Origin: a virus
Lineage: Duplodnaviria > Heunggongvirae > Uroviricota > Caudoviricetes
Direction: 5' to 3' (one strand)
Virus record (IMG/VR): IMGVR_UViG_2802429226_000008
Location: 1 to 41,124 of that record
Length of the DNA stretch: 41,124 nucleotides
Shown: one piece after another, positions 4,172 through 41,124 of the stretch
Position numbering within the stretch: the first letter of the stretch is position 1
Layout of the letters: every line of letters starts with the position of its first letter
Program-made: the position numbers and the translations under genes
Notes under the pieces: generated by a model
Told to the model about the DNA's origin: nothing
Databases searched by the model: none
The model's input: the letters and a program-made list of their open reading frames with translations, nothing else

Positions 4172-4996
4172 TCAGGCGGTGAAAGTACCAATAAAGGTTT
4201 CTACTTTGCTGTCCTTGAATTTCTCAACAAGCAGATCACGAAATTCGTTAGCCATTTCTTCCTGCACCGCCTCCAGCTGAATAATGCGCAGAACCAGTAC
4301 CGGACGATCGCCAGTGATAATGCTGAGGCGTAATTTAAACGGACGTTCTTTCAGACCTTCAAACGGAATGCATTTAAATTCAAATGCCACTGGCATAATG
4401 TCTTTGGTCTTCGCTTCGACAGACTCCATCAGGGAGCGTTTGCCGCTGAAGTCATTATCTTCAAAATCAGCGGTCTGGTTTGCTTCAATCGTGATTTTAC
4501 GGACCGCCGCAGCCGCTTTTGTTGCCTGAATGGTGTCACCATTAGCATCAAAGCCCACAAGGTAGTCGGCCCAGTCTTCAATCCATTCTGCCAGTGATTT
4601 CTGGGAGTTACGCTCGCCATTAACAGACAACAGAGCAGAGAACGGTGCTGTCTTTTTCAGTTTGAGAGTGGCGGTGTTATCTGCGTGACCTGGTTCATCA
4701 ATAGTACCCAGGTTAAGCACACTGACGGCACGCATATTATCAGCATCGATAAAGCAGCGGGTGCCTTCATCTGCAAGATCTTTAGAATAACGGGTAAAGT
4801 CATCGATGCTGGCAGTGGAAAGCGCACCACGGAAACGGAAGCGATTTAAATTAAATTTTTCCAGATCATGAATGCGGAAATTCTCAGGCAATGCCACAGC
4901 ATCGGCACCAATCTTACTGATAATTTCATTAACACCCTGAGCAGAAATAAGGGCATGGATTTGATTAATTGCGGTTGCGTCTAAGTTCTGAGACAT
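4172..4996 (-). CDS. DUF2303 / YfdQ-like prophage protein
   Basis: 274-aa ORF with GAGGA SD; resemblance to CPS-53 YfdQ family from memory. Confidence 0.65.
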
Positions 4997-5061
4997 AATA
5001 AGTCCTCACTATATAAAGATATTCAGTGATGAGATAAATAATCAGTTAATTAAGAACGATA

Positions 5062-5424
5062 TTAATGACCTGCTGCGCGGAGTTTTCCGTCAGGTTCACC
5101 GGCAAGAGTCAGTAATTGTCCCTGGTCTTCCTGCAGAATAGTCAGGCGACCACCGCGATTGACATACATCGGCGTTTCGGTGGTGTCTTCTTCGGAAATT
5201 TTCCCGCGGTTAGTCGGGCGAACATATGAGAGTTTGTGTTTGATTTTCACACGGTTCTCATCAAATGGTTCGATTTCCAGGTTGAGTGAGACCTTACCTT
5301 TGGTTTTCGTGTTCATCACACCGGAAGCGACTTCACTGAGAACTGCGCCGATTTTGGTTTCAAATACGCCGCCGTCCAGCTCCCCGATAAATGCCTGCAC
5401 ATCAGTACTGCGTTCGCTAGCCAT
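5062..5424 (-). CDS. hypothetical phage protein (120 aa)
   Basis: ATG at 5424 with GAGGAG SD; upstream in-frame extension of track ORF to 5742 has junk-like composition. Confidence 0.6.
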   Translation of the reverse strand: MASERSTDVQAFIGELDGGVFETKIGAVLSEVASGVMNTKTKGKVSLNLEIEPFDENRVKIKHKLSYVRPTNRGKISEEDTTETPMYVNRGGRLTILQEDQGQLLTLAGEPDGKLRAAGH

Positions 5425-5861
5425 TTTGCTGCTCCTCATCATATCGACCCTGCAAGGCCGATTAGTTTCTCCACAAAACAGAGAAGAACACCTGCGGTAG
5501 CAGCCGCCCGGATGGATTGGGTTATGAGCCCGTCGTCCGGTGATGCTCTTCTCTGTTTTGTAAAAAGGACGGTACCAGCCGGAAGCAAGGGTACAAACTG
5601 GTACCGCCAGGACTACACACAGCATAAAGTTGTGGTGCCGGGTGCCTCCCGGTGCCTGGCGAAGGTTGCACACCAGACGGGTGGGTATCCACAGAAGGTC
5701 GACTGTCAGCCTCAACCTTAACCCGCGTGCGCTGAGCCGCATTCACCACAACGCTAAGGATTCTCTTTGGTTGAAAATACTTAGCTGTTATGTGCCTGTC
5801 TTTTCACCACTTCAGGCTCGGTGGTATCCTTTTAAGCCCGTATACATAAAAGGAAAATCAA

Positions 5862-6107
5862 ATGACTTTTGATGAAAAAGAACTTGATAATGCAATTAAT
5901 AAAATCATCGTAACGTCGCTCTTTTCCTGTCTCAGCGACACTCAGCAGAAACAGTTCTACGAATCGGCTTTCAACATGATCGAGCGTTGTTGTTTCTGCG
6001 ATGCCGACGAGTTACCTGAAAAAATCAGGAAACAGTTGGCTGATGCTCTTCGAGTGCGACTTTCTGACCAATTTTCTGAAATGTGCTCTCCGAATTTGGA
6101 CAAATAG
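5862..6107 (+). CDS. hypothetical small protein
   Basis: 81-aa ORF, AAGGA SD 9 nt upstream; convergently overlaps 6025..6300. Confidence 0.45.
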   Translation: MTFDEKELDNAINKIIVTSLFSCLSDTQQKQFYESAFNMIERCCFCDADELPEKIRKQLADALRVRLSDQFSEMCSPNLDK

Positions 6108-6300
6108 AAAAAGGCCATTTCCATTCAGGGTCTGATGGAAATACTTCAGCCTGTTCCAAAGCACGGCGTAAAGAGAACACAACTCCAGCCATAATCTGAT
6201 GTTTCCCATTGGTCCAGCTATCGCCGCTCTGATCTACAGGGGCGGCTATGTCGTATGACCAAACGACTTCACAGTTATTGTTTAAAATCTGGACTTTCAT
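6025..6300 (-). CDS. hypothetical small protein, first gene of leftward early operon
   Basis: ATG at 6300 with AGGTG SD; lies downstream of PL-like promoter. Confidence 0.45.
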   Translation of the reverse strand: MKVQILNNNCEVVWSYDIAAPVDQSGDSWTNGKHQIMAGVVFSLRRALEQAEVFPSDPEWKWPFSICPNSESTFQKIGQKVALEEHQPTVS

Positions 6301-6426
6301 TTCATACACCTGCTTTAACATGAGTGCCTAGTGGCACAACATGACTCAACGAATCATCCTGGACTTCATATGCCCCAGGCGGCTACTTCGTGGGCGTCCT
6401 GCCTGTTCGTTGTTTCGCTTGGGTAC

Positions 6427-6454
6427 ATTATGTATCTCAAAGGTACATTGTCAA
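6427..6454 (-). promoter_or_regulatory. PL-like sigma70 promoter (-35 TTGACA, 16-nt spacer, -10 CATAAT) with overlapping GTACA-type palindromes
   Basis: minus-strand reading of 6427..6454; palindrome TACAT-N-ATGTA at 6424..6434. Confidence 0.5.
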
Positions 6455-6457
6455 GTA

Positions 6458-6480
6458 TAAAAAAACCTGCCGAAGCAGGT
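6458..6480 (-). terminator. rho-independent terminator downstream of cI
   Basis: minus strand ACCTGCTTCGGCAGGT hairpin followed by a 7-T run. Confidence 0.7.
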
Positions 6481-6493
6481 TCATAAACATTGA

Positions 6494-7168
6494 TTAGGCT
6501 TTGATTTTGTATCTTCTTGGTTTTCCTGAGAAAATCACTGTACCAATTATAGAGCAATTACCGTTGATCTTAATGTAAGGCTCAGGCCAGTTTGGGTTTA
6601 ACGCTTTGAGATAACGCTGTGTCCCATCTTCTATCAACCTTTTGAAGGTGGTTTCGCCTGTATCGTGCATCAATGCAATAACGTCGTCACCGTGGCAGGC
6701 AGGTACTTCAGGATCGACAAAAATCATGTCTCCCGGGCGGTACTCATCAATCATTGAATCACCTATCACCCGCAAGATATAAGTCATTTCCCCACAGGGT
6801 ACAGGGCAGGGATACGTTTCTGCTGTGCTCAAATCAACCTCAGAATATCCAACTTCTTTCCATGCTCCGGCCTGTACCCATGATATGACAGGGACTAATG
6901 TGATTTGTTTATTAGTGATTGAAACATCAGGTTTTTTTGTGATGTTCGTTGTCTGGTGTTCTTGATCGAGCCATCCGACAGGCAGGTCGAAACATTTTTC
7001 GATGTGTCGTGCCATGCTGTCACCGATATTTTTAGTAGCACCATCTCCCATAAACCTGCTGGTCTGGGTTGGCTCGCGATCAATCATAGTGGCAAAGGAA
7101 GAATTCCCGCCAACACCATCTCTCAGTTTTCTGGCGTTAGACCGCCGGATGTCATGGATTGTTTTCAT
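6494..7168 (-). CDS. cI: CI-type prophage repressor (HTH-XRE N-domain, S24 LexA-like peptidase C-domain)
   Basis: 224 aa; C-terminal VIGDSM serine motif; no SD before ATG (leaderless-like); divergent from cro. Confidence 0.88.
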   Translation of the reverse strand: MKTIHDIRRSNARKLRDGVGGNSSFATMIDREPTQTSRFMGDGATKNIGDSMARHIEKCFDLPVGWLDQEHQTTNITKKPDVSITNKQITLVPVISWVQAGAWKEVGYSEVDLSTAETYPCPVPCGEMTYILRVIGDSMIDEYRPGDMIFVDPEVPACHGDDVIALMHDTGETTFKRLIEDGTQRYLKALNPNWPEPYIKINGNCSIIGTVIFSGKPRRYKIKA

Positions 7169-7258
7169 AACGAAATTAAAACCCTTGTACCGTTAAGGTA
7201 CAAGTATCTTGAAGGTTCATTTCAATCATGTAATATGTACACCGGAGGTACATATTGT
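7169..7258. promoter_or_regulatory. divergent PRM/PR promoter-operator region
   Basis: palindromes CTTGTACC-N5-GGTACAAG (7184..7204) and AATATGTAC-N7-GTACATATT (7232..7256); PR -35 TTGAAG 7209..7214, -10 TAATAT 7231..7236; PRM -35 (7198..7203) and -10 TTTAAT (7175..7180) on minus strand. Confidence 0.6.
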
Positions 7259-7459
7259 ATGAAAGCGTATTGGGACTCTTTAACCAAAGAACAGCAGGGC
7301 GAGTTGGCCGGAAAAGTTGGCTCAACACCTGGCTACTTACGGCTGGTTTTCAATGGCTATAAAAAAGCCAGTTTTGTGCTGGCTAAAAAACTTGAGCAAT
7401 GCACGTCAGGTGCAATTACGAAATCTGACTTAAGACCGGATATCTATCCGAAAGATTAG
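7259..7459 (+). CDS. cro: Cro-like HTH regulator
   Basis: 66 aa; GGAGG SD 10 nt upstream; divergent from cI. Confidence 0.75.
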   Translation: MKAYWDSLTKEQQGELAGKVGSTPGYLRLVFNGYKKASFVLAKKLEQCTSGAITKSDLRPDIYPKD

Positions 7460-7490
7460 CAGAACACTTTCAATTTTTAACCACAGAACG

Positions 7491-8054
7491 ATGAGGCTAA
7501 CCGTGGGTAAGCATCACTGGAAAATAGAAAAACAGCCTGAGTGGTACGTGAAAGCTGTCAGAAAAACTATCGCAAAGTTGCCGGGTGGTTACGCTGAAGC
7601 AGCTGACTGGCTGGATGTAACAGAGAACGCATTATTTAACCGCCTTCGTGCCGATGGCGATCAGATTTTCCCGCTGGGATGGGCAATGATTTTGCAACGT
7701 GCTGGTGGAACTCACTTCATTGCTGACGCAGTGGCGCAGTCTGCAAATGGCGTCTTTGTGTCTCTTCCTGACGTCGAGGATGTGGACAACGCCGATATTA
7801 ACCAGCGCCTGCTGGAAGTCATTGAACAGATCGGCAGTTATTCAAAACAGATTCGTTCAGCAATTGAAGACGGTGTAGTGGAACCGCATGAGAAGACAGC
7901 AATTAACGACGAGCTGTACCTCTCAATTTCGAAGCTGCAGGAGCATGCAGCACTGGTCTACAAAATTTTTTGCATTTCAGAAAGTAATGACGCCCGCGAG
8001 TGTGCAGCTCCGGGCGCCGTGGCGTGTCGTGACTGTGGAGAAACTAACGCATGA
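7491..8054 (+). CDS. putative early regulatory protein (CII/YdaT-position; function uncertain)
   Basis: 187-aa ORF immediately after cro. Confidence 0.5.
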
Positions 8055-8389
8055 ACAGTTTAACAACACACTACCGTCGCTCGCAACTGATTGCGCTTCC
8101 TGTACCGGGTGGAAAAGCGAAGGTGGAGTATTGCTATGCAGTAAATGTACCAGGTGACAGGGAAATTGTAACCCACAGCTTTGCAGAGTGGGCTGTGGGT
8201 GATTTCAACCGGCAGAAGGAGACAGTCCTTTGCGACAAGTTAACCGCTGGTTCAAAGATCACTACGGAGTGCCCGTCAGAGTCATTCGTTGGGAGCCGGA
8301 AACACAACGTGTTATCTACCTCCGCGAAGGCTATGAGCATGAGTGCTTCAGCCCGCTCGAACAGTTTCGTCGTAAATTCAGGGAAATAG
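8051..8389 (+). CDS. hypothetical protein; 3' half probably read in wrong frame (see finding)
   Basis: 112-aa track ORF; C-terminal third is Ser-rich junk-like while alternate frame 8203..8409 reads protein-like. Confidence 0.35.
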
Positions 8390-8398
8390 AGGTCGGTC

Positions 8399-9340
8399 AT
8401 GAGCACTAAATTAACCGGCTATGTATGGGATGGTTGCGCTGCATCAGGCATGAAATTATCCAGCGTGGCAATTATGGCCCGCCTGGCTGATTTCAGTAAT
8501 GACGAAGGTGTGTGCTGGCCATCAATTGAAACCATTGCCCGCCAGATTGGCGCGGGGATGAGTACCGTCAGAACGGCTATCGCACGGCTGGAAGCAGAAG
8601 GCTGGTTAACGCGTAAGGCGCGTCGCCAGGGTAACCGCAATGCGTCGAATGTTTATCAGCTTAACGTTGCGAAGCTTCAGGCAGCGGCATTTTCTCAACT
8701 GTCAGATTCTGACCCGTCAAAATCTGACGCATCAAAATCTGACCCGTCAAAATTTGATGCGTCGAAATCTGGCAAAAAAGCGGGTTTTCACCCGTCAGAA
8801 TCTGGCGGGGATCCGTCAGTAAAATCAAAACATGATCCGTCAGATAAAAAAACTTCTCGTCCGGACGCTTCGCAACCGGACACGCAGACGGCTGAACAGG
8901 AGTTTTTAACTCGCCATCCTGATGCGGTTGTATTCAGCCCTAAAAAGCGCCAGTGGGGAACGCAGGATGATTTGACCTGCGCACAGTGGCTCTGGAAAAA
9001 AATCATCGCCCTGTACGAGCAGGCCGCCGAATGTGACGGCGAGGTGGTTCGTCCCAAAGAACCGAACTGGACAGCCTGGGCAAACGAAATTCGCCTGATG
9101 TGTGTGCAGGATGGTCGTACTCACAAACAAATCTGCGAGATGTACAGCCGCGTCAGCCGCGATCCGTTCTGGTGCCGTAACGTGCTCAGCCCGTCGAAGC
9201 TGCGGGAAAAATGGGATGAGCTTTCCCTGCGCTTATCGCCGTCCGTCAGCACGTACACAGAAAAACGCGAAGACCCGTACTTCAAAGCCAGTTACGACAA
9301 CGTGGACTACAGCCAGATCCCGGCAGGATTCAGGGGGTGA
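8399..9340 (+). CDS. replication initiation protein (lambda O-like, N-terminal wHTH), contains iteron array
   Basis: 313 aa; N-terminal HTH region; internal DPSKSDASKSDPSKFDASKSG repeat reflecting DNA iterons. Confidence 0.8.
   Translation: MSTKLTGYVWDGCAASGMKLSSVAIMARLADFSNDEGVCWPSIETIARQIGAGMSTVRTAIARLEAEGWLTRKARRQGNRNASNVYQLNVAKLQAAAFSQLSDSDPSKSDASKSDPSKFDASKSGKKAGFHPSESGGDPSVKSKHDPSDKKTSRPDASQPDTQTAEQEFLTRHPDAVVFSPKKRQWGTQDDLTCAQWLWKKIIALYEQAAECDGEVVRPKEPNWTAWANEIRLMCVQDGRTHKQICEMYSRVSRDPFWCRNVLSPSKLREKWDELSLRLSPSVSTYTEKREDPYFKASYDNVDYSQIPAGFRG
8702..8806. repeat. iteron array (putative replication origin), 15-bp periodic direct repeats TCAAAATCTGAC, followed by an AT-rich tract
   Basis: copies at 8702, 8717, 8732, 8747, 8762 and 8795; A-rich segment 8820..8850. 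Confidence 0.7.
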
Positions 9341-9342
9341 TC

Positions 9343-9831
9343 ATGAGTCTTTTGAATGAAGTTCAGAAATTCATTGAAGCCCATCCGGGGTGTACTTCCG
9401 GAGACATTGCGGATGCTTTTGCAGGTTACTCACGGCAGCGCGTTCTGCAGTCAGCAAGCAAGTTACGTCAGAGTGGGCGTGTGGCTCACCGTTGTGAAGG
9501 AGATACACGCAGACATTTCCCACGCCTGACTGAGAGAGCGCAGGAGCCGGAACCACAACCAGTTCGTGAAACCAGACCTGTGCGCAATTTCTATGTCGGC
9601 ACTAACGATCCCCGGGTGATTTTGTGCCTGACCCGCCAGGCGGAAGAATTGGAGTCCAGGGGCTTATACCGTCGTGCTGCAACGGTGTGGATGGCGGCAT
9701 TCCGTGAAAGCCACTCCCAGCCAGAACGAAACAATTTTCTGGCGCGTCGTGAGCAGTGTTTACGGAAAAGCAGCAAGCGCGCTGTATCGGGTGATGAGTG
9801 GTATCTGTCAGGGAATTACGTGGGGGCTTAA
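9343..9831 (+). CDS. hypothetical phage protein (possible winged-helix N-terminus)
   Basis: ATG at 9343 (track start 9337 is GTG); TAATG overlap with next gene. Confidence 0.55.
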   Translation: MSLLNEVQKFIEAHPGCTSGDIADAFAGYSRQRVLQSASKLRQSGRVAHRCEGDTRRHFPRLTERAQEPEPQPVRETRPVRNFYVGTNDPRVILCLTRQAEELESRGLYRRAATVWMAAFRESHSQPERNNFLARREQCLRKSSKRAVSGDEWYLSGNYVGA

Positions 9832-10484
9832 TGAGTAATAAATATTGCCAGGAGCTGGTGGAACTGCGGAACAAACCAGCCCATGAACTGAAGGAAGTGG
9901 GTGATCAGTGGCGCACGCCGGACAACATTTTCTGGGGAATTAACACCCTGTTTGGCCCGTTTGTTCTGGATCTGTTTACTGACGGTGATAACGCCAAATG
10001 TGCTGCGTATTACACGGCGGAAGACAACGCGCTGGCGCATGACTGGTCAGAACGTCTTGCGGAGCTTAAAGGGGCTGCCTTTGGTAATCCCCCATACAGC
10101 CGCGCCAGTCAGCATGAGGGGCAATACATCACCGGCATGCGTTACATCATGAAACATGCCAGTGCCATGCGTGATAAGGGCGGGCGCTATGTTTTCTTGA
10201 TCAAAGCTGCCACCAGCGAAGTGTGGTGGCCGGAAGATGCAGATCATATTGCTTTTATTCGCGGGCGTATTGGTTTTGAACTGCCTGTCTGGTTTATCCC
10301 GAAAGACGAGAAGCAGGTACCGACAGGAGCTTTTTTCGCTGGTGCTATTGCTGTTTTTGACAAGACCTGGAAGGGACCGGCAATCAGCTACATCGGGCGC
10401 GATGAACTTGAGGCATGTGGTGAGGCGTTTCTGGCGCAGGTTCGCCAGCAGGCGGAAAAACTGGTCAGGGAGATGGCGGCATGA
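9831..10484 (+). CDS. phage DNA N6-adenine methyltransferase (orphan Dam-like)
   Basis: NPPY motif (GNPPYS); ATG at 9831 overlapping upstream stop. Confidence 0.82.
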   Translation: MSNKYCQELVELRNKPAHELKEVGDQWRTPDNIFWGINTLFGPFVLDLFTDGDNAKCAAYYTAEDNALAHDWSERLAELKGAAFGNPPYSRASQHEGQYITGMRYIMKHASAMRDKGGRYVFLIKAATSEVWWPEDADHIAFIRGRIGFELPVWFIPKDEKQVPTGAFFAGAIAVFDKTWKGPAISYIGRDELEACGEAFLAQVRQQAEKLVREMAA

Positions 10485-12011: not shown

Positions 12012-13007
12012 GTGACCGTGAGAGCACTACTGACCCCTGAAATTGCCCCGCGTATGGGGATCGTATTGTTCAGGCCAGGTTCAGAGCTGATGCCCTTGTT
12101 TATGCAGGGGCGTGTCCTGCTGGAGCCTGAGCCGGAACGTTATTCATCTTTCGCCAGTGGTGCCGTTCCGGCGGCATCACAACCGCTGGCGGATGATCCT
12201 GCCGTTCGGGCCGTGTTCCGCAATGAGGCAGTGATCCGTCGTGCTGGTGGCGTGGAATGTCTTGAAAGCTGGTTACTTCGTGAAAAAGGCTGCCAGTGGC
12301 CTCATTCCGGCTGGCACAGCGAGAACATGACCACAATGCGACACGCGCCGGGCGCAATCCGTCTGTGCTGGCACTGTGATAACCAGCTGCGCGATCAGTT
12401 CACGGAACGGCTGGAATCAATGGCAACGGATAACTGTGCCCGGTGGGTGTTATCTGTCGTGCGTCGGGATCTCGGTTTTAATGATAGTCACGTTGTGACA
12501 ATGCCGGAACTGTGCTGGTGGCTGGTTCGTAATGACTTGGCGGATGCCTTACCGGAAAGTGCAGCCCGTAAGGCACTGAGATTACCGAAGCCTGTTGTGC
12601 CGTCTGTCACCCGGGAAAGTGACCTTGTGCCTTCGGTTCCTGCCACCAGCATCATCCAGGATAAAGCGAAAAAGGTGCTGGCGCTGAAAGTGGATCCGGA
12701 GTCGCCGGAGTCTTTTATGTTACGCCCAAAACGTCGCCGCTGGGTTAATGAAAAGTACACGCGCTGGGTTAAGACACAGCCGTGTGCATGTTGTGGAAAG
12801 CCTGCTGATGATCCCCACCACCTGATAGGCCACGGTCAGGGGGGAATGGGTACAAAAGCGCATGACCTCTTTGTGTTGCCTTTGTGCAGAAAGCATCACG
12901 ACGAACTGCATGCGGATACCGTGGCATTTGAAGAGATGTATGGCTCCCAACTGGAGCTGATATTTCGTTTTATCGATCGTGCGCTGGCAATTGGCGTACT
13001 GGCGTAA
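12012..13007 (+). CDS. DUF968-family prophage protein (YdfU-like)
   Basis: 331 aa; C-terminal Cys/His-rich CACCGK...HHLIGHG...CRKHHDELH; start codon uncertain (GTG at 12012). Confidence 0.65.
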   Translation: MTVRALLTPEIAPRMGIVLFRPGSELMPLFMQGRVLLEPEPERYSSFASGAVPAASQPLADDPAVRAVFRNEAVIRRAGGVECLESWLLREKGCQWPHSGWHSENMTTMRHAPGAIRLCWHCDNQLRDQFTERLESMATDNCARWVLSVVRRDLGFNDSHVVTMPELCWWLVRNDLADALPESAARKALRLPKPVVPSVTRESDLVPSVPATSIIQDKAKKVLALKVDPESPESFMLRPKRRRWVNEKYTRWVKTQPCACCGKPADDPHHLIGHGQGGMGTKAHDLFVLPLCRKHHDELHADTVAFEEMYGSQLELIFRFIDRALAIGVLA

Positions 13008-13020
13008 GTGGAGAACGAGC

Positions 13021-13773
13021 ATGAACCTTGAAGCCTTACCAAAATATTACTCCCCAAAATCTCCAAAATTGAGCGATGACGCACCGGCGACAGGCTCAGG
13101 TGGTTTAACGATTACGGATGTGATGGCTGCGCAGGGGATGGTGCAGTCGAAAGCACCGCTTGGGTTTGCCTTATTCCTGGCAAAAGTTGGTGTTCAGGAT
13201 CCTCAGTTTGCGATTGAAGGTCTGCTCAATTACGCGATGGCACTGGATAACCCGACATTGAACAAATTGAGTGAAGAAATCCGGTTACAGATCATCCCTT
13301 ACCTTGTGAATTTTGCCTTTGCTGATTATTCCAGGTCTGCGGCAAGTAAGGCTCGCTGTGAGCATTGTGCTGGTACTGGATTTCATAATGTATTGCGCGA
13401 GGTGGTGAAGCACTCCAGAAGCGGGGAATCTGTTATCAAGGAAGAGTGGGTGAAGGAACTATGTCAGCATTGTCATGGTAAGGGAGAAGTCAGCACAGCG
13501 TGCAGAGGGTGTAAGGGTAAAGGTATTGTCCTGGATGAAAAAAGGACCCGGCTTCATGGCACACCTGTTTATAAGATTTGTGGGCGTTGCAATGGAAAAC
13601 GGTTTAGTCGTTTACCAACCACACTGGCGCGGCATCATGTCCAGAAGCTGGTACCGGACCTGACTGATTATCAGTGGTACAAAGGATATGCAAATGTCAT
13701 TGATAAACTGGTTACAAAGTGCTGGCAGGAGGAATCTTACGCTGAAGCACAATTGAGAAAGGTGACGAGATAA
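13021..13773 (+). CDS. late-gene antiterminator Q-like protein
   Basis: 250 aa; paired CxxC zinc-finger motifs (CEHCAGTG, CQHCHGKG, CRGCKGKG, CGRCNG); position just upstream of lysis genes. Confidence 0.78.
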   Translation: MNLEALPKYYSPKSPKLSDDAPATGSGGLTITDVMAAQGMVQSKAPLGFALFLAKVGVQDPQFAIEGLLNYAMALDNPTLNKLSEEIRLQIIPYLVNFAFADYSRSAASKARCEHCAGTGFHNVLREVVKHSRSGESVIKEEWVKELCQHCHGKGEVSTACRGCKGKGIVLDEKRTRLHGTPVYKICGRCNGKRFSRLPTTLARHHVQKLVPDLTDYQWYKGYANVIDKLVTKCWQEESYAEAQLRKVTR

Positions 13774-14372
13774 GTGATTTTCGCCGAAGATGGCGACATG
13801 ATGCTTGCATTTTTCAAAAAATATGGATAAGATTTTCTCAACGATGGGCTTTGTATGTCTGCCGTTGAGAATCTTCAAGAACCCGCCATCAAGTAGGTAT
13901 TTTGTTATCCAAATATCAGTTCTGAATAGTCTTAGTCGCTTCTTGATAAACATAAAAGAATAAGTACTTGCTTTGAATGGCCGCCTTTTAGACAGGGCAG
14001 AGAGTACGATTGGTTGAAAAAAGCATAGTTCTTGGCGGTAGGTTTTATTTTAGTCTCTCATCTATGTATCTAGGGAAGTATGTGATTACCTTCAGGAATT
14101 ATATCCTGTGTTTCATATGATTACATGGGAGCAAGGGACGCCAACTTTATAACAATTCTTTTGCCCAGCCACTATATATAGATAAAAAAAATCCTCATCA
14201 TCCCGTATATTGTTGTTGATTTCTTTTTGCTATATATGTTGTGTTTTTTATGCCTTTATTGCATATGTGATTAATGTGCTTGTTGTTATATTCAATACGA
14301 TGCCAAGGGATTTGGGACGTGTATATCCAATAAATTGGCAGATTTTTGTTAATTACTTGGGTAGCGTATTGT

Positions 14373-14813
14373 ATGACTAAAAATGCACAGCAGGTTCTTG
14401 AAGACTCTGCCCAACAGATTTTTCCCGATTATTTTCCTGCAGATGTTCCTCCAAAAGAGTCCTTGGATGCTGAAGGGGTTTTTTATCGCTTAGCCAGAAA
14501 TAATCCACCTGGGAAAGCTTGTTTTTTAAACATGAAAGAAGAAAACCCAAAAAGAATGAAAAAGTTCCAAGGGTTAAAATTGAAATGCTGCTATGGTGTT
14601 TCTATGTTCATGGACGAAACATCACTGGTAAATGTATTTAATAAATTTCCTGAAGGAATAGGTGAAAGGTTTATTGCTAAAGGCGAGTTGAATCCACAGG
14701 ATGGAAGAATGCTAAAAACAGGAGCTCCTGATTCGACTCATTTTACCATTTGGCTTTGTAAAGATGCTCGAGTTCATGAAAAATTCACCTGTATAAGAGA
14801 GGTGGTTAGATGA
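14373..14813 (+). CDS. hypothetical protein, AT-rich cargo gene A (146 aa)
   Basis: ATG at 14373 (track start 14346 is TTG); low-GC codon usage; ATGA overlap with gene B. Confidence 0.6.
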   Translation: MTKNAQQVLEDSAQQIFPDYFPADVPPKESLDAEGVFYRLARNNPPGKACFLNMKEENPKRMKKFQGLKLKCCYGVSMFMDETSLVNVFNKFPEGIGERFIAKGELNPQDGRMLKTGAPDSTHFTIWLCKDARVHEKFTCIREVVR

Positions 14814-16099
14814 GCAATATTTTTTTGGAAGATAGTGTGTTCGGCACATTATATATGCAAAAAATTTATGAGTTCTTCGAAGAGCCAAAACTTTTCTCTG
14901 TGTCTAATGAAATAAATAGCATGTTTGTTGTCTATTGGATTGGCGACGAAGAAGATTATGATAAATGGATTATCATACCGATTTCAAAAGATAGGTTGGA
15001 GCACTTCGAGCGTAAAAGAATTGATATTAGAAGTGTTTTAGTGTATCAAGAACAAAAGCTTTGCTATCAGTTTAATATTTACTATGAAGATAATCATGTT
15101 GATGAAATAAAAATAAATGTTTCTGAGTTAAATGAGAAGATAAAAATTCCAGAACCTAACTTATATATTAGTAGTGTTCTTCCTGTATTACCTAATGGTA
15201 AAATTGGAAAGGAGGTAGAATTCTCTACGCATGAGATTCATGTGGAGAAAACAGCAACTTCTGTGGAACCCTTGGTTTTAAAAGGCGTCTCGAAGCTTTT
15301 TGAGTGTTTTAATGATTTCTATTCATCAATATTAGCTGCATTTGATGAAAAAGATGTAATGAGTCCAGTATCTGGACGTCCTGGTTCATTTGTTCTTTCA
15401 TTCAAGGCAGATAAAATGCAGCAAATTGAACCATTGCTGAAAAAACTAAATGAGCTGATTCTATCAAGAAAAGATATTATTGGTTTTGTTAAACAGAATA
15501 ATATCGATGTTCAGATGTTATCTGCTTTATTTGAAAGTGTGATAGAGACAAGTTCATGTTTTGAACTAAAAAGTAATGTGACTGATGATATTATTCTTAG
15601 AGTCAGAAAAACTGATGCTGAGTTCTATTCTGGCACATTGATTAAAATGGCTACTCAAGTTGTTAGTAGTTATCAGGTACCGCAGGCTAACCTAATTGAA
15701 CAAGTGTTTAAGATAGTTGAATTAAAATGGCAAGAGAAGCATCTGAACCTGATTAGTACTGGTCTGGATAATCGACATATATTGTATTATATTCATGCGG
15801 CCAAAATACTTGGGTTACTAAATAGTAATGGTTCTGTTTCAGCTCTTGGTCAGCAATTGGTTGAATCTGACTATGATAAGAGACTAAGAATCGCTGCACG
15901 CGGTTTTGAAACAAGTCATTGCGGGTGGGCGTGGATTACCTGGAGTCAGGCTAAAAATCTTTCTGAGCTCGATCCACTTACAGCTGAACGATTTTTGCAA
16001 GATAGATGTATATCTCTCAGCTCCAAAACAATAAAGAGAAGGGCTTCTACTTTAAGGCAGTGGTGTGAAAAATTGCAACCTGCTTATCAGGAGCTCTGA
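14810..16099 (+). CDS. hypothetical protein, AT-rich cargo gene B (429 aa)
   Basis: GAGGTGG SD; long open frame in AT-rich DNA; no recognisable catalytic motif. Confidence 0.7.
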   Translation: MSNIFLEDSVFGTLYMQKIYEFFEEPKLFSVSNEINSMFVVYWIGDEEDYDKWIIIPISKDRLEHFERKRIDIRSVLVYQEQKLCYQFNIYYEDNHVDEIKINVSELNEKIKIPEPNLYISSVLPVLPNGKIGKEVEFSTHEIHVEKTATSVEPLVLKGVSKLFECFNDFYSSILAAFDEKDVMSPVSGRPGSFVLSFKADKMQQIEPLLKKLNELILSRKDIIGFVKQNNIDVQMLSALFESVIETSSCFELKSNVTDDIILRVRKTDAEFYSGTLIKMATQVVSSYQVPQANLIEQVFKIVELKWQEKHLNLISTGLDNRHILYYIHAAKILGLLNSNGSVSALGQQLVESDYDKRLRIAARGFETSHCGWAWITWSQAKNLSELDPLTAERFLQDRCISLSSKTIKRRASTLRQWCEKLQPAYQEL

Positions 16100-16176
16100 A
16101 GGATATGATGATTATCTTCTTTTTGGAAGAAGATAATGTAAATTTGATTTTATTATAACACTCTACCTAAATAAAA

Positions 16177-16200
16177 GGCTCGCACAGGCGAGCCTTTTCC
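16177..16200 (+). terminator. rho-independent terminator after cargo operon
   Basis: GGCTCGC-ACAG-GCGAGCC hairpin followed by TTTTCC. Confidence 0.6.
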
Positions 16201-16279: not shown

Positions 16280-16615
16280 ATGCCCCATAATCCAAACACA
16301 TGGCCGGATTGGCTGGAGATTTTCCAGAGCTGGTGGCGTGGAGATACGCCTCTTGGCGCAGTGATTATGTCGATCGTTATGGCTGGTTTGCGTATTGCTT
16401 ATTTTGGTGGTGGTGGTGGCTGGAAGCGAAAAACGCTCGAGATTTTGCTCTGTGGTGCTCTGACGCTGACTTTTGCATCCGCGCTTGAGTATGTCGGATG
16501 GCCTAAATCGCTTTCTGTTGCCATTGGTGGTGGCGTGGGGCTGATCGGTGTCGATGCTATTCGTGGGGCTGCAATGCGAGTAATCGGTAATAAATTTGGT
16601 AGCTCGAAGGAGTAA
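16280..16615 (+). CDS. holin
   Basis: 111 aa with three hydrophobic segments; immediately upstream of endolysin. Confidence 0.72.
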   Translation: MPHNPNTWPDWLEIFQSWWRGDTPLGAVIMSIVMAGLRIAYFGGGGGWKRKTLEILLCGALTLTFASALEYVGWPKSLSVAIGGGVGLIGVDAIRGAAMRVIGNKFGSSKE

Positions 16616-35339: not shown

Positions 35340-36110
35340 ATGCATCGTATAGACACGAAAACCGCGCAGAAGGATAAGTTCGGCGCGGGTAAGAACGGTT
35401 TTACCCGTGGTAACCCCCAGACCGGCACGCCTGCCACCGATCTGGATGATGACTACTTTGACATGTTGCAGGAGGAGCTTTGCAGCGTTGTGGAGGCATC
35501 CGGTGCCAGCCTGGAGAAGGGGCGGCATGACCAGCTGCTTACCGCGCTTCGTGCGCTGCTGTTAAGCCGCAAGAATCCGTTTGGCGATATCAAATCGGAT
35601 GGCACGGTGAAAACAGCTCTCGAAAACCTTGGTTTGGGAGAAGGCTCTGCATTACCTGTTGGTGTCCCTGTTCCGTGGCCTTCAGCCACTCCGCCAACAG
35701 GCTGGCTGAAATGCAACGGAGCAGCTTTTTCTGCTGAAGAATACCCGGAACTGGCAAAGGCTTACCCGACAAATAAATTGCCAGATTTACGTGGTGAGTT
35801 TATTCGTGGCTGGGATGACGGGCGTGGTATTGATGCTGGACGTGCTTTATTGAGCCTTCAGGCTGGGATGCTGGAAAAACACCGCCATATTGTTGTTGCC
35901 AATGATGGTTACGACACAAAAGATGAATGGGAACTGGCTACGATTTTCAAAAAAACATACACACAAGGACGGGGACTTGATGCCACAAATACAGGAGGGA
36001 GTCTGATCCCATCACCGACACTTCATTCACGAGGGAGTATCGGTAATACTGGCGGGAGTGAGACCCGTCCACGAAATATTGCATTTAACTTTATCGTGAG
36101 GGCTGCATAA
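35340..36110 (+). CDS. tail fiber protein (constant N-part, variable C-part inside invertible segment)
   Basis: 256 aa; crossover site inside codons ~93-101 (LENLGLGE). Confidence 0.8.
35617..35644. repeat. left inversion crossover site (gix/cix-like)
   Basis: CTCTCGAAAACCTTGGTTTGGGAGAAGG; inverted copy at 37459..37486. Confidence 0.75.
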
Positions 36111-36712
36111 TGGATAACGCAGTATTAAATAGCGAGTTTATTGCCACGAAGGCGGGGAATATTACCGTCTATAACTACGATGGTGAAACTCGGGAATATA
36201 TTTCTGCATCAACTGAATATCTTGCAATGGGTGTCGGTATTCCAGCATATTCCTGTTTAGACGCTCCTGGTACATATAAGGCTGGTTATACAATTTGCCG
36301 TTCTGTAGATTTAAATTCATGGGAATATGTGCCAGACCATCGCGGTGAAATCGTCTATAACACCGAAACGGGAGACGCCAAAGAAATCACAGCTCCGGGT
36401 GATTATCCTGAAAATACAACCACTATCGCCCCGTTAACGCCATTCGATAAATGGGATGGTAAGAAATGGGTGACCGATACTGAGGCACAGCATAGCGCCG
36501 CAGTAGACGCGGCAGAAGTACAGCGTCAGTCACTGATTAATACTGCAATGGCTTCCATTAGTCTGATTCAACTTAAATTGCAGGCCGGGCGGAAGCTGAT
36601 GCAGGCAGAGACCACCCGACTTAACACTGTGCTGGATTACATTGACGCGGTGACGGCAACAGATACCAGCACAGCGCCGGATGTCATCTGGCCTGAACTG
36701 CCGGAGGCGTAG
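36110..36712 (+). CDS. tail fiber assembly protein
   Basis: 200 aa; TAATG coupling to tail fiber; conserved C-terminus shared with the inverted alternative. Confidence 0.78.
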   Translation: MDNAVLNSEFIATKAGNITVYNYDGETREYISASTEYLAMGVGIPAYSCLDAPGTYKAGYTICRSVDLNSWEYVPDHRGEIVYNTETGDAKEITAPGDYPENTTTIAPLTPFDKWDGKKWVTDTEAQHSAAVDAAEVQRQSLINTAMASISLIQLKLQAGRKLMQAETTRLNTVLDYIDAVTATDTSTAPDVIWPELPEA

Positions 36713-37121
36713 GCCATTCAATATCTGGCACACTGGAGGTATCAACCAGCTCCAGTGCGTCCAGGTAATCCAGCCATAAATTATATTGCGCCAGTTCCTC
36801 GTCTTTCAGACGACCAATAGCGGCTTTACCGGGCCATTGTTTACTGTTCATGTATTCGTTGGCCTGATTAAGCAATAATTGCCTTTCTGATTCTGCCTGT
36901 TGAATAAGTTCTTCATGTGATGGTGGAGGTATTAGTGCCCATGTGGGTAATCCATTTTCTCCTGCAACACGAATTTTGCCATCTGGGGGCGTATTTATTG
37001 CAAATTCATTATAAACATCATCACTGACAGCCAGAGCATCATCTGGCCATGAATTTGCATTAATGTAATCATCCTTAAGTGCAGGATTCACAAAAATGTT
37101 TAAAGATGGACTATAAAACAT
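36684..37121 (-). CDS. alternative tail fiber assembly protein (inverted orientation)
   Basis: 145 aa; C-terminus (...VDTSSVPDIEWPTPP) parallels the plus-strand assembly protein C-terminus (...TDTSTAPDVIWPELP). Confidence 0.72.
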   Translation of the reverse strand: MFYSPSLNIFVNPALKDDYINANSWPDDALAVSDDVYNEFAINTPPDGKIRVAGENGLPTWALIPPPSHEELIQQAESERQLLLNQANEYMNSKQWPGKAAIGRLKDEELAQYNLWLDYLDALELVDTSSVPDIEWPTPPAVQAR

Positions 37122-37122
37122 A

Positions 37123-37512
37123 TTACACCCCTATAGCGATATAACGACCTAATACAGCGTTTGCAGCAGTCGCTATGCTTGAAAAACCGCGGAACTGATT
37201 TGATGTAATTGCAGAAGCCGACAGGATTCCTGCGCCTGAAGGTGTATGCCCCACATGACTAACTATCATTCCATAACATGCTGACGGAAAGGCAAAAGGA
37301 AAATCGTTAAGATATCCGGCATCTTCACCACCAGACCCACCAAATCTCGCCTGCCCCCACTGAATAATCAGTGTTCTCCGGGAACCTGAAATAATTAACG
37401 GAATCGTTACATACCCATTCAGACCAATGACACCCGATGCAGTGCCAGCCAGAGATAATTCTCCCAAACCAACGTTTATGAAAATGCAGAAATAACAAGC
37501 AAATGGCATCAT
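37123..37512 (-). CDS. alternative tail-fiber C-terminal cassette (silent until inversion fuses it to the constant N-part)
   Basis: ORF reads ...NVGLGE at crossover site, matching NLGLGE of expressed fiber. Confidence 0.65.
   Translation of the reverse strand: MMPFACYFCIFINVGLGELSLAGTASGVIGLNGYVTIPLIISGSRRTLIIQWGQARFGGSGGEDAGYLNDFPFAFPSACYGMIVSHVGHTPSGAGILSASAITSNQFRGFSSIATAANAVLGRYIAIGV
37459..37486. repeat. right inversion crossover site (gix/cix-like)
   Basis: TTCTCCCAAACCAACGTTTATGAAAATG; shares TTGGTTTGGGAGAA with the left site in inverted orientation. Confidence 0.75.
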
Positions 37513-37538
37513 TCCTGCTTTTGTCAGGGAGATCTACC

Positions 37539-38093
37539 ATGCTTATTGGCTATGTACGTGTGTCAACAAATGACCAGAACACCGATCTACAACGTAATGC
37601 GTTGAACTGTGTAGGATGTGAACTGATTTTTGAAGACAAGATAAGCGGTACGAAGTCCGAAAGGCCCGGACTGAAAAAACTGCTCAGGACATTATCGGCA
37701 GGTGACACACTGGTTGTCTGGAAGCTGGATCGGCTGGGGCGTAGTATGCGGCATCTGGTCATTCTAGTTGAGGAGTTGCGCGAACGTGGCGTTAATTTTC
37801 GCAGCCTGACGGATGCTATTGATACCAGCACACCGATGGGGCGTTTTTTCTTTCATGTGATGGGTGCCTTGGCTGAAATGGAACGAGAACTGATTGTTGA
37901 ACGAACAAAAGCTGGACTGGAAGCTGCTCGCGCGCAGGGACGAATTGGTGGACGTCGTCCCAAACTTACACCAGAACAATGGGCGCAGGCCGGGCGATTA
38001 ATTGCATCAGGCGTTCCTCGCCAAAAGGTGGCGATCATCTATGATGTTGGTATATCGACACTGTATAAGAAGTTTCCGGTTGGAGATAAATGA
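37539..38093 (+). CDS. serine DNA invertase (Hin/Gin/Pin/Cin family)
   Basis: 184 aa; N-terminal GYVRVSTNDQ catalytic-Ser motif; C-terminal HTH; adjacent to crossover site. Confidence 0.9.
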   Translation: MLIGYVRVSTNDQNTDLQRNALNCVGCELIFEDKISGTKSERPGLKKLLRTLSAGDTLVVWKLDRLGRSMRHLVILVEELRERGVNFRSLTDAIDTSTPMGRFFFHVMGALAEMERELIVERTKAGLEAARAQGRIGGRRPKLTPEQWAQAGRLIASGVPRQKVAIIYDVGISTLYKKFPVGDK

Positions 38094-38313: not shown

Positions 38314-41124
38314 TTATTTTTTTAGAGATTGCATTCGTTCATTGAATATGTCCAATGTGTCTTGAAATTCAACAAAGCCTCTATCCTTTATAAGGCTTTT
38401 AATTAAGTTAGGAAAATCACTTTCTACACCAGCTGTAATGAAATCTAACTCGCCTAATTTATTCGGGATGTTTTCAGAAACAAATTTGTTAATAACCTCA
38501 AGAAATTGATCAGGCATGGCACATCCGCTTGCGACTAAATGCAAACATTCCATAATATCGCTTACTGTTGCCAGTGGTAGGTTTAAAATATTACTGTTAA
38601 TAAACTTGTCTATAATGTCAACGACCTCAGGAGAGCCAATCCTTTTGATGTTCAATAATAAACTCTTAGTGATGGATCTTTTCCACTTATCATCAAATAA
38701 TTGTATTTTTGTTAACGCTAATGTTAATAGTTCAGTGTTTTTGTATTCGTAATTATGATTCTCTGATAATATGTAAATGTTTCGTAAGATATTGGAGTTA
38801 ATTACATGCTGGTCATAACCATTTAACTCTCCTGTATTGATTTTTATAAGTATTACATCCAGGATTTTTAACATATCATCATGGGATTTTTGATACAAAA
38901 ACTCATTCACAGCTAGAAGATTATGTATGTTTTCATAAATATTTATGTTATTAGTTCTGCCTTCTAACAAAGGAAGCAAACCATTTATTATTTTCTTTAA
39001 CTGGTTTGAACTCCACGGAACACATCCTAATATAATCAATAAATTATTGGTCCATCGATCTATTGAAGTGGTATGAATAAAATTTTTATTTTTCAACCTA
39101 ATCAGGTTGCATATGTTTTCGAGAGAGTTGAGTAAATATTTCTTAATATGGTGAACTTCTCTTTTGTCAAGTTTGCTGGTGCTGATTATTATTTTGTCTT
39201 TTATTACCTTACTTAAAAATTTTTTGAGTTTTTCTGTCTCGCAGTATTTTATTAACATAAATAGATCGATTCTATTAACATAGAATATCTCTTCGCATAG
39301 ATAGTGTTCGAGGCTACTAAGAATATTAAATTCGAAAAATTGTTTAACCTCTTTATATTCTTCAATTAAAATTTCGTTGCCTAAAATGAAATACACATAA
39401 GGGTACAGTTTCGCTCTTGTTTTAAATTCATCATTGGAAAATGCTATTCCACCACTCTTTCTTATTTGTGAGTACCCTAAATTCTTCTTCGATTCAACGT
39501 CAAATCGATAGTAAGCTTTGTATATTTCATTAAATTCAAGCATCTTTACTAATTCTTGTAGCTCACTTTGCACCCCCCGTGGAAAATCAATTATTTTACT
39601 TTTAAACTCAAATGGAGTATGGCTTTCCATTATTGATTTACAATCTTCATCAATGTCCTTACCGTTACAGTGTAAATCCGACTTCAACATCCTGTAAGCA
39701 TAATCAAAATTAGACATGTGAATGGTGGCGAGAATATAGTTTCTCTCATTAAGATGAAGCTTTACTTTCGAAATAAGAATATCGAGAAGTTTGCCATATT
39801 CCTTGTTAATAAGAAGTATTTCAGCATTATCCTTTGAATAAGCGAAAGAAATCTTATTGTATAGCTCAGACTCTAATTCTGAAGAACTAATCACCTCATA
39901 CAGTTTCGAGTCATAACTAACTGTATTTATAAATGCCTTTTCCAAAATAGATGAGAATGTCTTTTTTAAGTGAGTATTTTTACTCAAAATGTCATTAAGG
40001 TATATGCTATTTATTTTCCTGCTATACTCGTCATAATCAGTCGTCAAAATATTATTGTGGGAGGTTAGTTTAACCCCAGACTTATCATAATCAATGGTAC
40101 TATTAGTTAATTTTTTACTGATCTGCTCAGGGAGCAATACTTTGTATTGTGTTAATGCTTTTAGTTTGCTATCAACATATTTATTTATTTTTTTTGTTAC
40201 AATACATTGAATATCATTCTTCAATTTATTTTTATCAAAATCAGACATTCTCAGGTCATCTTCTATTTTTTTTACCTTTGACTCAGTATAGATTAGGGTC
40301 CTCTTTATAAACTCATCTTGGTTTTTAACAAGCTTGAAATCACTGAAAAATTTTGAATAAAGATCATGATAGCTAATGTCAGTATTCATCGGTGTCAACA
40401 AGGATATCCCATGATTTCTTAAGTAAAGAGCCTGGGCTGCATCATGATTTTTCTGGAGCAAATATTTTCTTGGTGTTGCTTTTGATATAGTTGTAACCCA
40501 TGAAACAATCTGTTTTAAATCATAATCACTATAAGAGTATCCTAAAAACACAACAGTGTTTGTTGAGAATATTCCTTTTATAAAATTTTCGATAAGTGGA
40601 AAATTTTGGCTGTACTGTAAGTAATCATCCTCTTTAAAAACAAAATTATTCTGTCGAAAATCCCCATGCATCTTTATAATTTTCTTGTCCAAATGACTTT
40701 GTGCCAGGTCCACGTCAGAACTAACTAAATCATAAGCCAATCCTATGTCTTGTGCAGTTTTTTCAAGCAAACTATCCCAGTTGGTTGTAATTATATAGTG
40801 GGGGTTTAATTCAAATAGCATCTTATGAAAAAGACTTGGTTTCAAATCTCTAATTATTGATTTGACTTTTTTAACATAAGAGTTTTGTCCGTATTGAAGA
40901 AAGTAAAGTTGGGCTATTTTTAAATAATCATTTTCTTCAGACAATCCTAAGTCGTCTTTTAGCTCATTTATTAACTCCCTCCAGGTTGGTATTTTTATTA
41001 ATTCCGTTTCGCTGAATTTAGAAAAACCAGCACCAATAAAAAGAACTAACTTATTATCTTGACTGGCATTCAATATTTCGTTCAAGTCATATTCAGAAAA
41101 AGAAAGTGGATTTAAATTTATCAT
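38314..41124 (-). CDS. SIR2-domain protein (936 aa), candidate NAD+-depleting antiphage defense protein (DSR/ThsA-like N-domain, unknown C-domain)
   Basis: N-terminal GAGFS (31-35), TTNWD (N115), KMHGD (H153), FLGYSYSD motifs; AT-rich codon usage; ATG exactly at window edge. Confidence 0.78.
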   Translation of the reverse strand: MINLNPLSFSEYDLNEILNASQDNKLVLFIGAGFSKFSETELIKIPTWRELINELKDDLGLSEENDYLKIAQLYFLQYGQNSYVKKVKSIIRDLKPSLFHKMLFELNPHYIITTNWDSLLEKTAQDIGLAYDLVSSDVDLAQSHLDKKIIKMHGDFRQNNFVFKEDDYLQYSQNFPLIENFIKGIFSTNTVVFLGYSYSDYDLKQIVSWVTTISKATPRKYLLQKNHDAAQALYLRNHGISLLTPMNTDISYHDLYSKFFSDFKLVKNQDEFIKRTLIYTESKVKKIEDDLRMSDFDKNKLKNDIQCIVTKKINKYVDSKLKALTQYKVLLPEQISKKLTNSTIDYDKSGVKLTSHNNILTTDYDEYSRKINSIYLNDILSKNTHLKKTFSSILEKAFINTVSYDSKLYEVISSSELESELYNKISFAYSKDNAEILLINKEYGKLLDILISKVKLHLNERNYILATIHMSNFDYAYRMLKSDLHCNGKDIDEDCKSIMESHTPFEFKSKIIDFPRGVQSELQELVKMLEFNEIYKAYYRFDVESKKNLGYSQIRKSGGIAFSNDEFKTRAKLYPYVYFILGNEILIEEYKEVKQFFEFNILSSLEHYLCEEIFYVNRIDLFMLIKYCETEKLKKFLSKVIKDKIIISTSKLDKREVHHIKKYLLNSLENICNLIRLKNKNFIHTTSIDRWTNNLLIILGCVPWSSNQLKKIINGLLPLLEGRTNNINIYENIHNLLAVNEFLYQKSHDDMLKILDVILIKINTGELNGYDQHVINSNILRNIYILSENHNYEYKNTELLTLALTKIQLFDDKWKRSITKSLLLNIKRIGSPEVVDIIDKFINSNILNLPLATVSDIMECLHLVASGCAMPDQFLEVINKFVSENIPNKLGELDFITAGVESDFPNLIKSLIKDRGFVEFQDTLDIFNERMQSLKK

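Follow-up and report, generated by a model that had tools for sequence, protein, structure and literature searches.

The 41,124 nucleotides of the virus record IMGVR_UViG_2802429226_000008, which in their full length are called the window here, belong to an SfV-like Escherichia coli prophage with a lambdoid early region and a Mu-like tail that lies beside a tRNA-Thr gene downstream of proA. Between the genes of the antiterminator Q and the holin the prophage carries an AT-rich cassette of two overlapping genes, termed A and B in the following (Table 1). We suggest that this cassette is a self-contained moron in the Q-to-holin slot and encodes a toxin–antitoxin (TA)-like abortive infection (Abi) module of the PD-T4-10 superfamily, in which A would restrain B via the N-terminal domain of B (N-domain) and in which the variant-specific module of B would be a winged-helix DNA binder. 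We assign this reading a probability of roughly 60%. As judged from the sequence comparisons, a role of the cassette in defense is likely.

PD-T4-10 was recovered in a functional selection against T4 and consists of two overlapping open reading frames (ORFs) without predicted function (Vassallo et al. 2022, Nat Microbiol; PMC9519451). In this system B is toxic and is fully neutralized by A, and A could not be deleted; loss of B abolished protection, and the defense is abortive and acts on T-even phages (PMC9519451). Both proteins were without domain hits in the HHpred tables at the time (Vassallo et al. 2022, PMC9519451), and DUF6575 is named among the domains newly tied to defense (PMC9519451). 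A late-2024 survey lists PD-T4-10 as two overlapping genes of unknown function.

The A protein of the window matches the PADLOC profile PD-T4-10_A with residues 24–144 (profile positions 24–147 of 148, E 4.7e-10, 37.3 bits). The match of B to PD-T4-10_B (E 1.1e-7, 30 bits) comprises only residues 23–120, aligned to positions 26–120 of 353; the remaining ∼300 aa of B are without match to this profile, so that B does not correspond to PD-T4-10_B over its full length. The architecture is that of PD-T4-10, namely two adjacent, overlapping, and co-oriented ORFs with the small A before the larger B. Other diverse members of the A family score 17–38 bits against PD-T4-10_A, which is comparable to the score of the A of the window. 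Thus, the likeness to PD-T4-10 is at the level of the superfamily and not of orthologues. The link to PD-T4-10 is made through the PADLOC profiles only (PDLC04023/PDLC04024), and the reference PD-T4-10 proteins RCO36089.1/RCO36088.1 from strain ECOR65 are absent from the matches to a 144-sequence profile in an indexed protein search. PD-T4-10, the only experimentally tested relative, thus resembles the cassette in gene order and overlap, in an A that is homologous over its full length and a B that is homologous in the N-domain, and also in being borne by mobile elements in E. coli. It differs in B, which has 429 aa in the window as compared to the ∼353 positions of the profile and whose C-terminal two-thirds (tandem winged helix, DUF7226-like) are unmatched.

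A preliminary description of this DNA had proposed an undescribed system, which cannot be upheld, as A and B match both components of PD-T4-10 in the matching order. Its suggestion of a defense system or toxin of an uncharacterized kind is retained in its first part, as antiphage defense or TA is the best reading, and has to be given up in its second. This variant, whose B has only the N-terminal ∼100 aa in common with PD-T4-10_B, is uncharacterized, and so is the way in which the family as a whole works. An annotation that filters for coverage would probably not label the cassette as PD-T4-10.

The TA-like architecture and the overlap of the two genes would also suit a plain addiction module that stabilizes the prophage or another mobile element and has no antiphage role, and there are relatives on plasmids and conjugative elements as well as beside other TA genes. 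We consider this explanation improbable, because PD-T4-10, to which the cassette is homologous, was isolated under phage challenge and its protection is of the Abi type (PMC9519451). In addition, cassettes with a B 73% identical to that of the window sit in the defense hotspot of P2 prophages, and further relatives are found in restriction–modification (R-M) operons and in defense islands.

The two genes are found together over a wide phylogenetic range. In each of the initial 24 loci, an A homologue directly precedes a B homologue, and A and B are adjacent in this order in 59 of 60 IMG/VR prophage contigs, the one exception ending at the contig edge. In the distant lineages with readable neighborhoods A is followed by a protein with a B-type N-domain as well (10 of 10 cases), with a small ORF on the opposite strand in between in locus L095. 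In the window-type loci examined, the start of B and the end of A are no more than a few bases apart, and the gap amounts to up to about 40 nt in the distant loci. From Enterobacterales to Acidobacteria and cyanobacteria, the pair of A and a B-type N-domain is present in every locus that can be checked. The two-component coupling proposed in the preliminary description is therefore borne out by the overlap and by this co-occurrence, and the conservation of homologue pairs, which it had put forward as a check, is found wherever it can be assessed.

An exhaustive profile search (E up to 1e-3) yields an A family of 693 cluster representatives at 50% identity, nearly all of which are stand-alone proteins of 120–150 aa. 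Fusions of A to other domains were considered and discarded: the representatives of 243–266 aa owe their length to low-complexity extensions at the N-terminus, apparently from miscalled starts, and not one of them matches the B profile. B of the window type (about 429 aa) occurs throughout Enterobacterales and with 27–40% identity in Vibrio, Photobacterium, Psychromonas, and Rheinheimera. Common to the B homologues are only the first ∼120–200 residues, and the remainder is specific to the lineage. Thus, A and the N-domain form a constant core to which a swappable C-terminal module is attached. This module is a DEAD/ResIII helicase in acidobacterial proteins of about 808 aa, PDC-M63B-like in four lineages, PDC-M32A-like in two lineages, an Nmad2 domain in one lineage, and tandem winged-helix domains in the B of the window; a Spirulina protein of 131 aa carries no such module at all.

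The predicted structures might give a hint how the two proteins work. B matches DUF6575 in Pfam with aa 3–223 (E 8e-37), and the match of aa 319–420 to DUF7226 is just below the threshold. The model of B (pLDDT 91) has a β-rich N-domain (aa 1 to ∼120) and a helical, DUF7226-like C-terminus (aa 319–420), and B probably carries two winged-helix units at about aa 203–265 and aa 296–345. Since the lineage-specific part of B is in this case a predicted winged-helix DNA-binding module, DNA binding is probably part of the output or of the sensing step. A is without match in Pfam and PHROGs; neither A nor B has a match in NCBIfam, and the only PHROG match of B is weak and of unknown function. No nuclease fold or motif was found in A or B by Pfam, NCBIfam, and fold comparison, and the Pfam and NCBIfam scans agree with the earlier statement that P-loop, nuclease, HEPN, TIR, and transmembrane motifs are not recognizable. 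A role of A or B in the virion or in lysis was also considered and has no PHROG, Pfam, or fold support.

A resembles ADP-ribosyltransferases (ARTs) by two structure-based methods. The top Foldseek matches are cholera toxin, LT, and pertussis toxin, and ART-fold TA proteins (RES-Xre, ParST, MbcTA, DarTG) are among the best structural matches. At the sequence level there is no link of A to ARTs, as the Pfam scans of all 19 members, with E values of up to 10, yielded only chance hits, for example, myoglobin, and so did a PDB sequence search with a profile. On the basis of the model we consider it likely that A has an ART-like fold. Over 144 homologues with a mean column identity of 22%, the residues S77, G111, H123, and W127 of A are invariant, and P22, P26, P27, R39, and F51 are conserved in at least 90%. 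ARTs of the R-S-E type carry the Arg on β1, the Ser on β2, and the catalytic Glu on β5. In the model of A, R39 is on β1, S77 on β2, and H123 on β5, and there is no conserved Glu at the β5 position. R39, S77, and H123 would accordingly fit the Arg, Ser, and Glu positions of the R-S-E enzymes, an assignment by strand order only and not by coordinate superposition. The most likely reading of the model is that A is not a passive antitoxin and instead a NAD+-binding or NAD+-using regulator of B.

With these properties the module is not a classical type II TA system, in which a small labile DNA-binding antitoxin is combined with an enzymatic toxin. Here, the large B, the counterpart of the reported toxin, has the predicted DNA-binding modules and the small A has the predicted enzyme-like fold; therefore, the logic of the domains is reversed. 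RES-Xre, ParST, MbcTA, and DarTG are likewise small two-gene modules with an ART-fold protein, and some of them defend against phage. However, their ART-fold protein is the toxin and has catalytic residues of the R-E-S or H-Y-E type, whereas the A of the window matches the reported neutralizer, has an R-S-H set, and lacks similarity to them at the sequence level. Unlike their partner proteins, B is neither an Xre nor a macrodomain protein. The type VII TA systems MntA-HepT and TakA-TglT may serve as a working analogy, as an enzyme-like protein neutralizes the toxin there, possibly by covalent modification; the known antitoxins of this type are nucleotidyltransferases or kinases, in contrast to the predicted ART fold of A.

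In all other TA systems with an ART-fold protein known to us, this protein is the toxin. For this reason, and as the part of PD-T4-10_B beyond the N-domain is not conserved here and a minimal pair of A and N-domain exists, either A or B may be the effector. With inverted roles, A would be an ADP-ribosyltransferase or NADase toxin that is held in check by the N-domain of B as an immunity clamp. The variable C-terminus of B, a winged-helix region here and a helicase elsewhere, would sense nucleic acids and upon infection release or activate A. We regard this arrangement as unlikely. The canonical catalytic Glu is apparently missing from A, and the minimal pair of A and N-domain is just as compatible with toxicity of the N-domain itself. 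Moreover, in PD-T4-10 it is B that is toxic alone and A that neutralizes and is undeletable (PMC9519451).

With A as the restraining partner, the module could work as follows. In the lysogen, the extended −10 promoter of the cassette would drive its transcription, which would end at the hairpin behind B, so that the lysis genes stay silent; after induction, Q-modified polymerase would read through the cassette. A would bind to the N-domain of B, or act on this domain as an enzyme, and the complex would be kept inert. Infection by a second phage would upset the balance of A and B, and the infected cell would stop growing before progeny are released. The output or sensing step would use DNA binding rather than a recognizable nuclease or NTPase activity. 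By analogy with PD-T4-10, T-even-like phages may be the targets. A more far-reaching version, which we put forward as doubtful, is that A is an active NAD+-dependent enzyme of an unrecognized ART-fold clade (Arg-Ser-His) that steers its partner via the DUF6575 N-domain, and that the modular family is wired to DNA methylation or to the R-M status. If true, this would be a new TA or defense switch with an ART-like enzyme as neutralizer or trigger, and the 693 clusters would constitute a family with interchangeable winged-helix, helicase, PDC-M63B, PDC-M32A, and Nmad2 modules for output or sensing.

The relatives of the cassette show an association with DNA methyltransferases and R-M systems, which we take as a lead. 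Directly upstream of A there is an MmeI/PglX-like methyltransferase in Acidobacteria, the stop of which overlaps the start of A, Dam in Psychromonas, and a longer N6_N4 methyltransferase in Klebsiella-type prophages. A methyltransferase is adjacent in 8 of the 60 prophage contigs, once downstream, this being a raw count without control gene families. In the loci L005/L006 and L017–L020 (Vibrio, Rheinheimera, Photobacterium, and a Bacteriovoracaceae metagenome-assembled genome (MAG)) a trio of N6_N4 methyltransferase, A, and B is found, which comprises a methyltransferase of 237 aa (70–86% identical), a gap of 46 bp, an A of 126 aa, and a B of about 420 aa; the trio of V. fluvialis adjoins a filamentous prophage (Zot, secretin, gpA-like replication protein). 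The acidobacterial MAGs L021, L022, and L024 have, at about 4800–10430, an operon of three genes coding for a methyltransferase–nuclease (type IIL, 924–943 aa), A, and the fusion of a B-type N-domain to a helicase. This fusion protein of ∼808 aa with its DEAD/ResIII helicase gives weak matches to PbeA, Cas3, and HamB, and L023 is a truncated copy. The operon has the appearance of a separate, as yet undescribed R-M-linked system that uses the core of A and N-domain.

L031 (6001–7545) and L096 (6001–7546) each have a type I R-M operon in which A and B separate hsdS from hsdM. The two pairs are mutually only 43% (B) and 56% (A) identical; the embedding in hsd operons is therefore conserved over considerable divergence. 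In L095 (5673–7930) the A homologue is next to a ThsB-like TIR gene and the DUF6575 partner is fused to the nucleotide-modification-associated domain Nmad2, and a 2OG-Fe(II) oxygenase, a 5-hmdU DNA kinase-like protein, and an Mrr nuclease follow; from these neighbors the region looks like a DNA-hypermodification and defense island. PrrC is an anticodon nuclease that acts as an Abi module triggered by T4. It is encoded in the EcoprrI type I R-M operon, which recalls the position of the L031 and L096 relatives between hsdS and hsdM. On the other hand, PrrC has no sequence or fold similarity to A or B and the copy in the window is outside of R-M operons, so that a guard relationship like that of PrrC is speculative for A and B. 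The window itself contains a Dam-family N6-adenine methyltransferase gene in a nin-like region (about 9819–10472, corresponding to L001 11046–11699), about 3.9 kb upstream of A, which may bear on the methyltransferase association of the relatives.

These arrangements raise the question whether A and B are an accessory or a guard of methyltransferases or R-M systems which reads the status of the DNA or of the R-M system via B. This would be compatible with the Abi module proposed above. The different families of adenine methyltransferases upstream of A in several lineages, the two type I R-M operons, and the fusion of one B to Nmad2 in a hypermodification island speak for such a coupling. Nevertheless, we judge it rather improbable. 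Most distant loci are without an adjacent methyltransferase, as is the cassette of the window, where the nearest one is the Dam-family gene and where, as A and B both lack a nuclease fold or motif, the two genes do not make up an R-M system. Methyltransferases are frequent cargo of the same prophage slots; thus, some adjacency is expected by chance. Finally, a two-gene clone of PD-T4-10 worked in K-12 (PMC9519451), although K-12 supplies Dam.

The location, composition, and rarity of the cassette identify it as acquired cargo. The upstream neighbor is the antiterminator Q (PF03589) and the downstream neighbor a lambda-type holin (PF05106) starting at 16280, which is followed by endolysin and spanin genes; both neighbors had been named correctly from the sequence alone, and ORF A, ORF B, the ATGA overlap, and the GAGGTGG motif are present as described. 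RefSeq carries both coding sequences in a 99.8% identical E. coli prophage, A as "hypothetical protein" and B as "DUF6575 domain-containing protein". The windowed GC content of 14001–16000 is 0.32–0.37 as compared to about 0.49–0.58 on either side, and the GC content at third codon positions is 0.286 for A and 0.281 for B, as compared to 0.475 for Q, 0.464 for the holin gene, and 0.560 for the DUF968 gene, which confirms the compositional deviation presumed before. The full cassette is present in 3 of 5426 complete E. coli genomes. A tblastn search of 50,697 deposited phage genomes with A gave no match; among plasmids two were matched, with window-type pairs only. Related cassettes occupy several prophage slots, i.e., between Q and holin, after the lysis cassette, in the gpA/portal defense hotspot of P2, and next to integrases, and beyond these they are found on a conjugative element and on a plasmid between recombinases. 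By composition, by rarity, and by the other cargo slots, the interpretation as horizontally acquired cargo in the moron slot between Q and the lysis genes is thus well founded.

The slots are shared with known cargo genes, stx in the slot between Q and S and tin and old in the gpA–portal slot of P2. Like other morons of lambdoid and P2 prophages, the cassette is AT-rich inserted DNA, is oriented like the late operon, and brings along a promoter-like element and a terminator; unlike theirs, its gene content is A and B, to which theirs is unrelated. In its position behind Q and the late promoter pR' and in its orientation the cassette agrees with the stx genes, and in view of the structural matches of A to cholera toxin, LT, and pertussis toxin it could be argued that A is an ART of the lytic program or of lysogenic conversion, expressed via Q antitermination, which modifies host proteins like Alt, ModA, and ModB of T4 or is directed against eukaryotes. 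This is very improbable, since a signal peptide and a partner similar to a B-pentamer are missing, since the cassette has a promoter-like element and a terminator of its own, and since relatives exist outside of phages (R-M operons, chromosomal loci of Acidobacteria and cyanobacteria), whereas the deposited phage genomes lack A.

The DNA upstream of A was described before as about 570 bp of AT-rich noncoding sequence. The AT-rich stretch is real, but the gap from Q to A amounts to 599 bp and its first ∼115 bp are not cargo. Of 5426 E. coli genomes, 1261 contain this first segment (13774–13888) with 88–96% identity, as do lambdoid phages including Stx2 phages; the annotation of phage Ayreon places a terminator where the matching segment ends. 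The late promoter pR' and the Q-utilization region are probably located in the segment, with a candidate promoter TTGCAT-17 nt-TAAGAT at 13805–13833. The possibility that the ∼600 bp upstream of A are a decayed methyltransferase gene was rejected, as tblastn with five methyltransferase queries gave no matches there and no remnant in the cassette-specific spacer (13889–14283).

A generic sigma-70 scan upstream of A found no promoter, and the extended −10 element surfaced only through comparative alignment. In an alignment of 10 sequences TTG(T/C)TATATT is invariant, with cassettes that follow Q, a methyltransferase, or gpA of P2, and in most enterobacterial loci of the window type (identity of B 47–100%) the element lies at an almost fixed distance from A. 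We infer that it is the promoter of the cassette itself. In the aligned cassettes ATGCCAA begins 17 nt after the start of the extended −10 element, and TTGGCAG follows 32–43 nt beyond and then a T-run. The arms of this repeat are invariant or nearly so in 19 non-redundant leaders. RNAalifold predicts a stem of 7 bp for the leaders, in which five pairs do not vary, pair 6 is AU in 14 and GU in 4 leaders, and pair 7 is CG in 7, GU in 4, UA in 3, and broken in 5. The repeat may be either a hairpin or attenuator of the 5′ leader or a DNA operator, the covariation being too weak to separate the two. The extended −10 element and the leader repeat are seen upstream of A in the loci L002, L007–L012, and L039–L091, and both are absent from the Vibrio, Psychromonas, and acidobacterial types.

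Downstream of B, a hairpin with the sequence AAAAGGCUCGC-ACAG-GCGAGCCUUUU resembles an intrinsic terminator. It corresponds to the hairpin noted earlier at this place and has a stem of 11 bp with a ΔG of −17.6 kcal/mol and a z-score of −4.36 against shuffled sequences; a simple terminator scan missed it because the T-run is absorbed into the stem. A search of the region for known RNA families returned only the SurA sRNA over the terminator, which was rejected (19.9 bits vs. a gathering score of 100). Given its own promoter-like element and the putative terminator, the cassette is built like an autonomous moron.

Table 1. Features of the cassette and of its flanking DNA (positions in the window).
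Feature	Positions	Strand	Remarks
Conserved lambdoid segment just 3′ of Q	13774–13888	+	∼115 bp; phage backbone, not cargo
Cassette-specific AT-rich spacer	13889–14283	+	GC 0.34; only short unconserved ORFs
Extended −10 promoter-like element	14284–14292	+	TGtTATATT; from comparative alignment
Leader inverted repeat and T-run	14300–14347	+	ATGCCAA 14300–14306, TTGGCAG 14334–14340
Gene A	14373–14813	+	146 aa; PD-T4-10_A family, predicted ADP-ribosyltransferase-like fold
A/B coupling junction	14799–14813	+	Shine-Dalgarno GAGGTGG 14799–14805; ATGA stop/start overlap 14810–14813
Gene B	14810–16099	+	429 aa; DUF6575 N-terminal part, predicted winged-helix units, helical C-terminus
Intrinsic-terminator-like hairpin	16173–16198	+	closes the cassette before the holin gene

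Two imperfect direct repeats of 24 nt (14809–14832/16107–16130 and 14948–14971/16126–16149, collinear, 75–79% identical) both tie the start of B to the DNA just past its stop codon. They could mark the boundaries of a cassette but are probably chance matches in AT-rich DNA. The neighboring Q (12979–13773) has a DnaJ-type zinc-finger signature CxxCxGxG between two Antiterm matches (PF00684, E 3e-7, below the Pfam cutoff). As listed, its ORF begins at a GTG and overlaps the preceding DUF968 gene by 29 nt. The RefSeq product has 250 aa; therefore, the true start of Q is probably about 14 codons further downstream.

Further regions of the prophage deserve mention. At its right end (38314–41124, minus strand) there is a second AT-rich block with a GC content of about 0.30, which codes for a protein of 936 aa with the start codon at the edge of the window. 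This protein has an N-terminal SIR2_2 domain (Pfam, E 3e-24) and matches the SIR2 part of Thoeris ThsA in PADLOC with residues 15–230 only (E 4e-29); a full-length PADLOC match was not obtained. It is probably another defense cargo gene, of an unclassified SIR2 type. The region 35340–38093 is a tail-fiber host-range switch with a Hin-like serine invertase (37503–38093, Resolvase and HTH_7) and, beside it, opposed genes for tail-fiber C-terminal parts and assembly at 36110–36712 (plus strand), 36684–37121 (minus strand), and 37123–37512 (minus strand). The invertase next to opposed tail-fiber genes corresponds to the invertible segments of Mu Gin and P1 Cin.

PD-T4-10 is an experimentally selected defense system of E. 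coli without a mechanism, and the cassette described here is a divergent natural variant of it. The family is large and phylogenetically wide, and current defense annotation would probably miss this variant. In addition, the Q-to-holin slot of non-Stx lambdoid prophages is seen to carry likely defense cargo with a putative regulatory leader of its own. The constant unit of A and the ∼110 aa N-domain of B points to where the neutralization must happen, the predicted ART-like fold of A offers three conserved polar residues as targets for mutation, and the remainder of B is modular, with a predicted winged-helix DNA-binding array in this variant. The interest of the cassette is thus not that of a new category but lies in the structural and comparative handles which it provides on a validated system of unknown mechanism.

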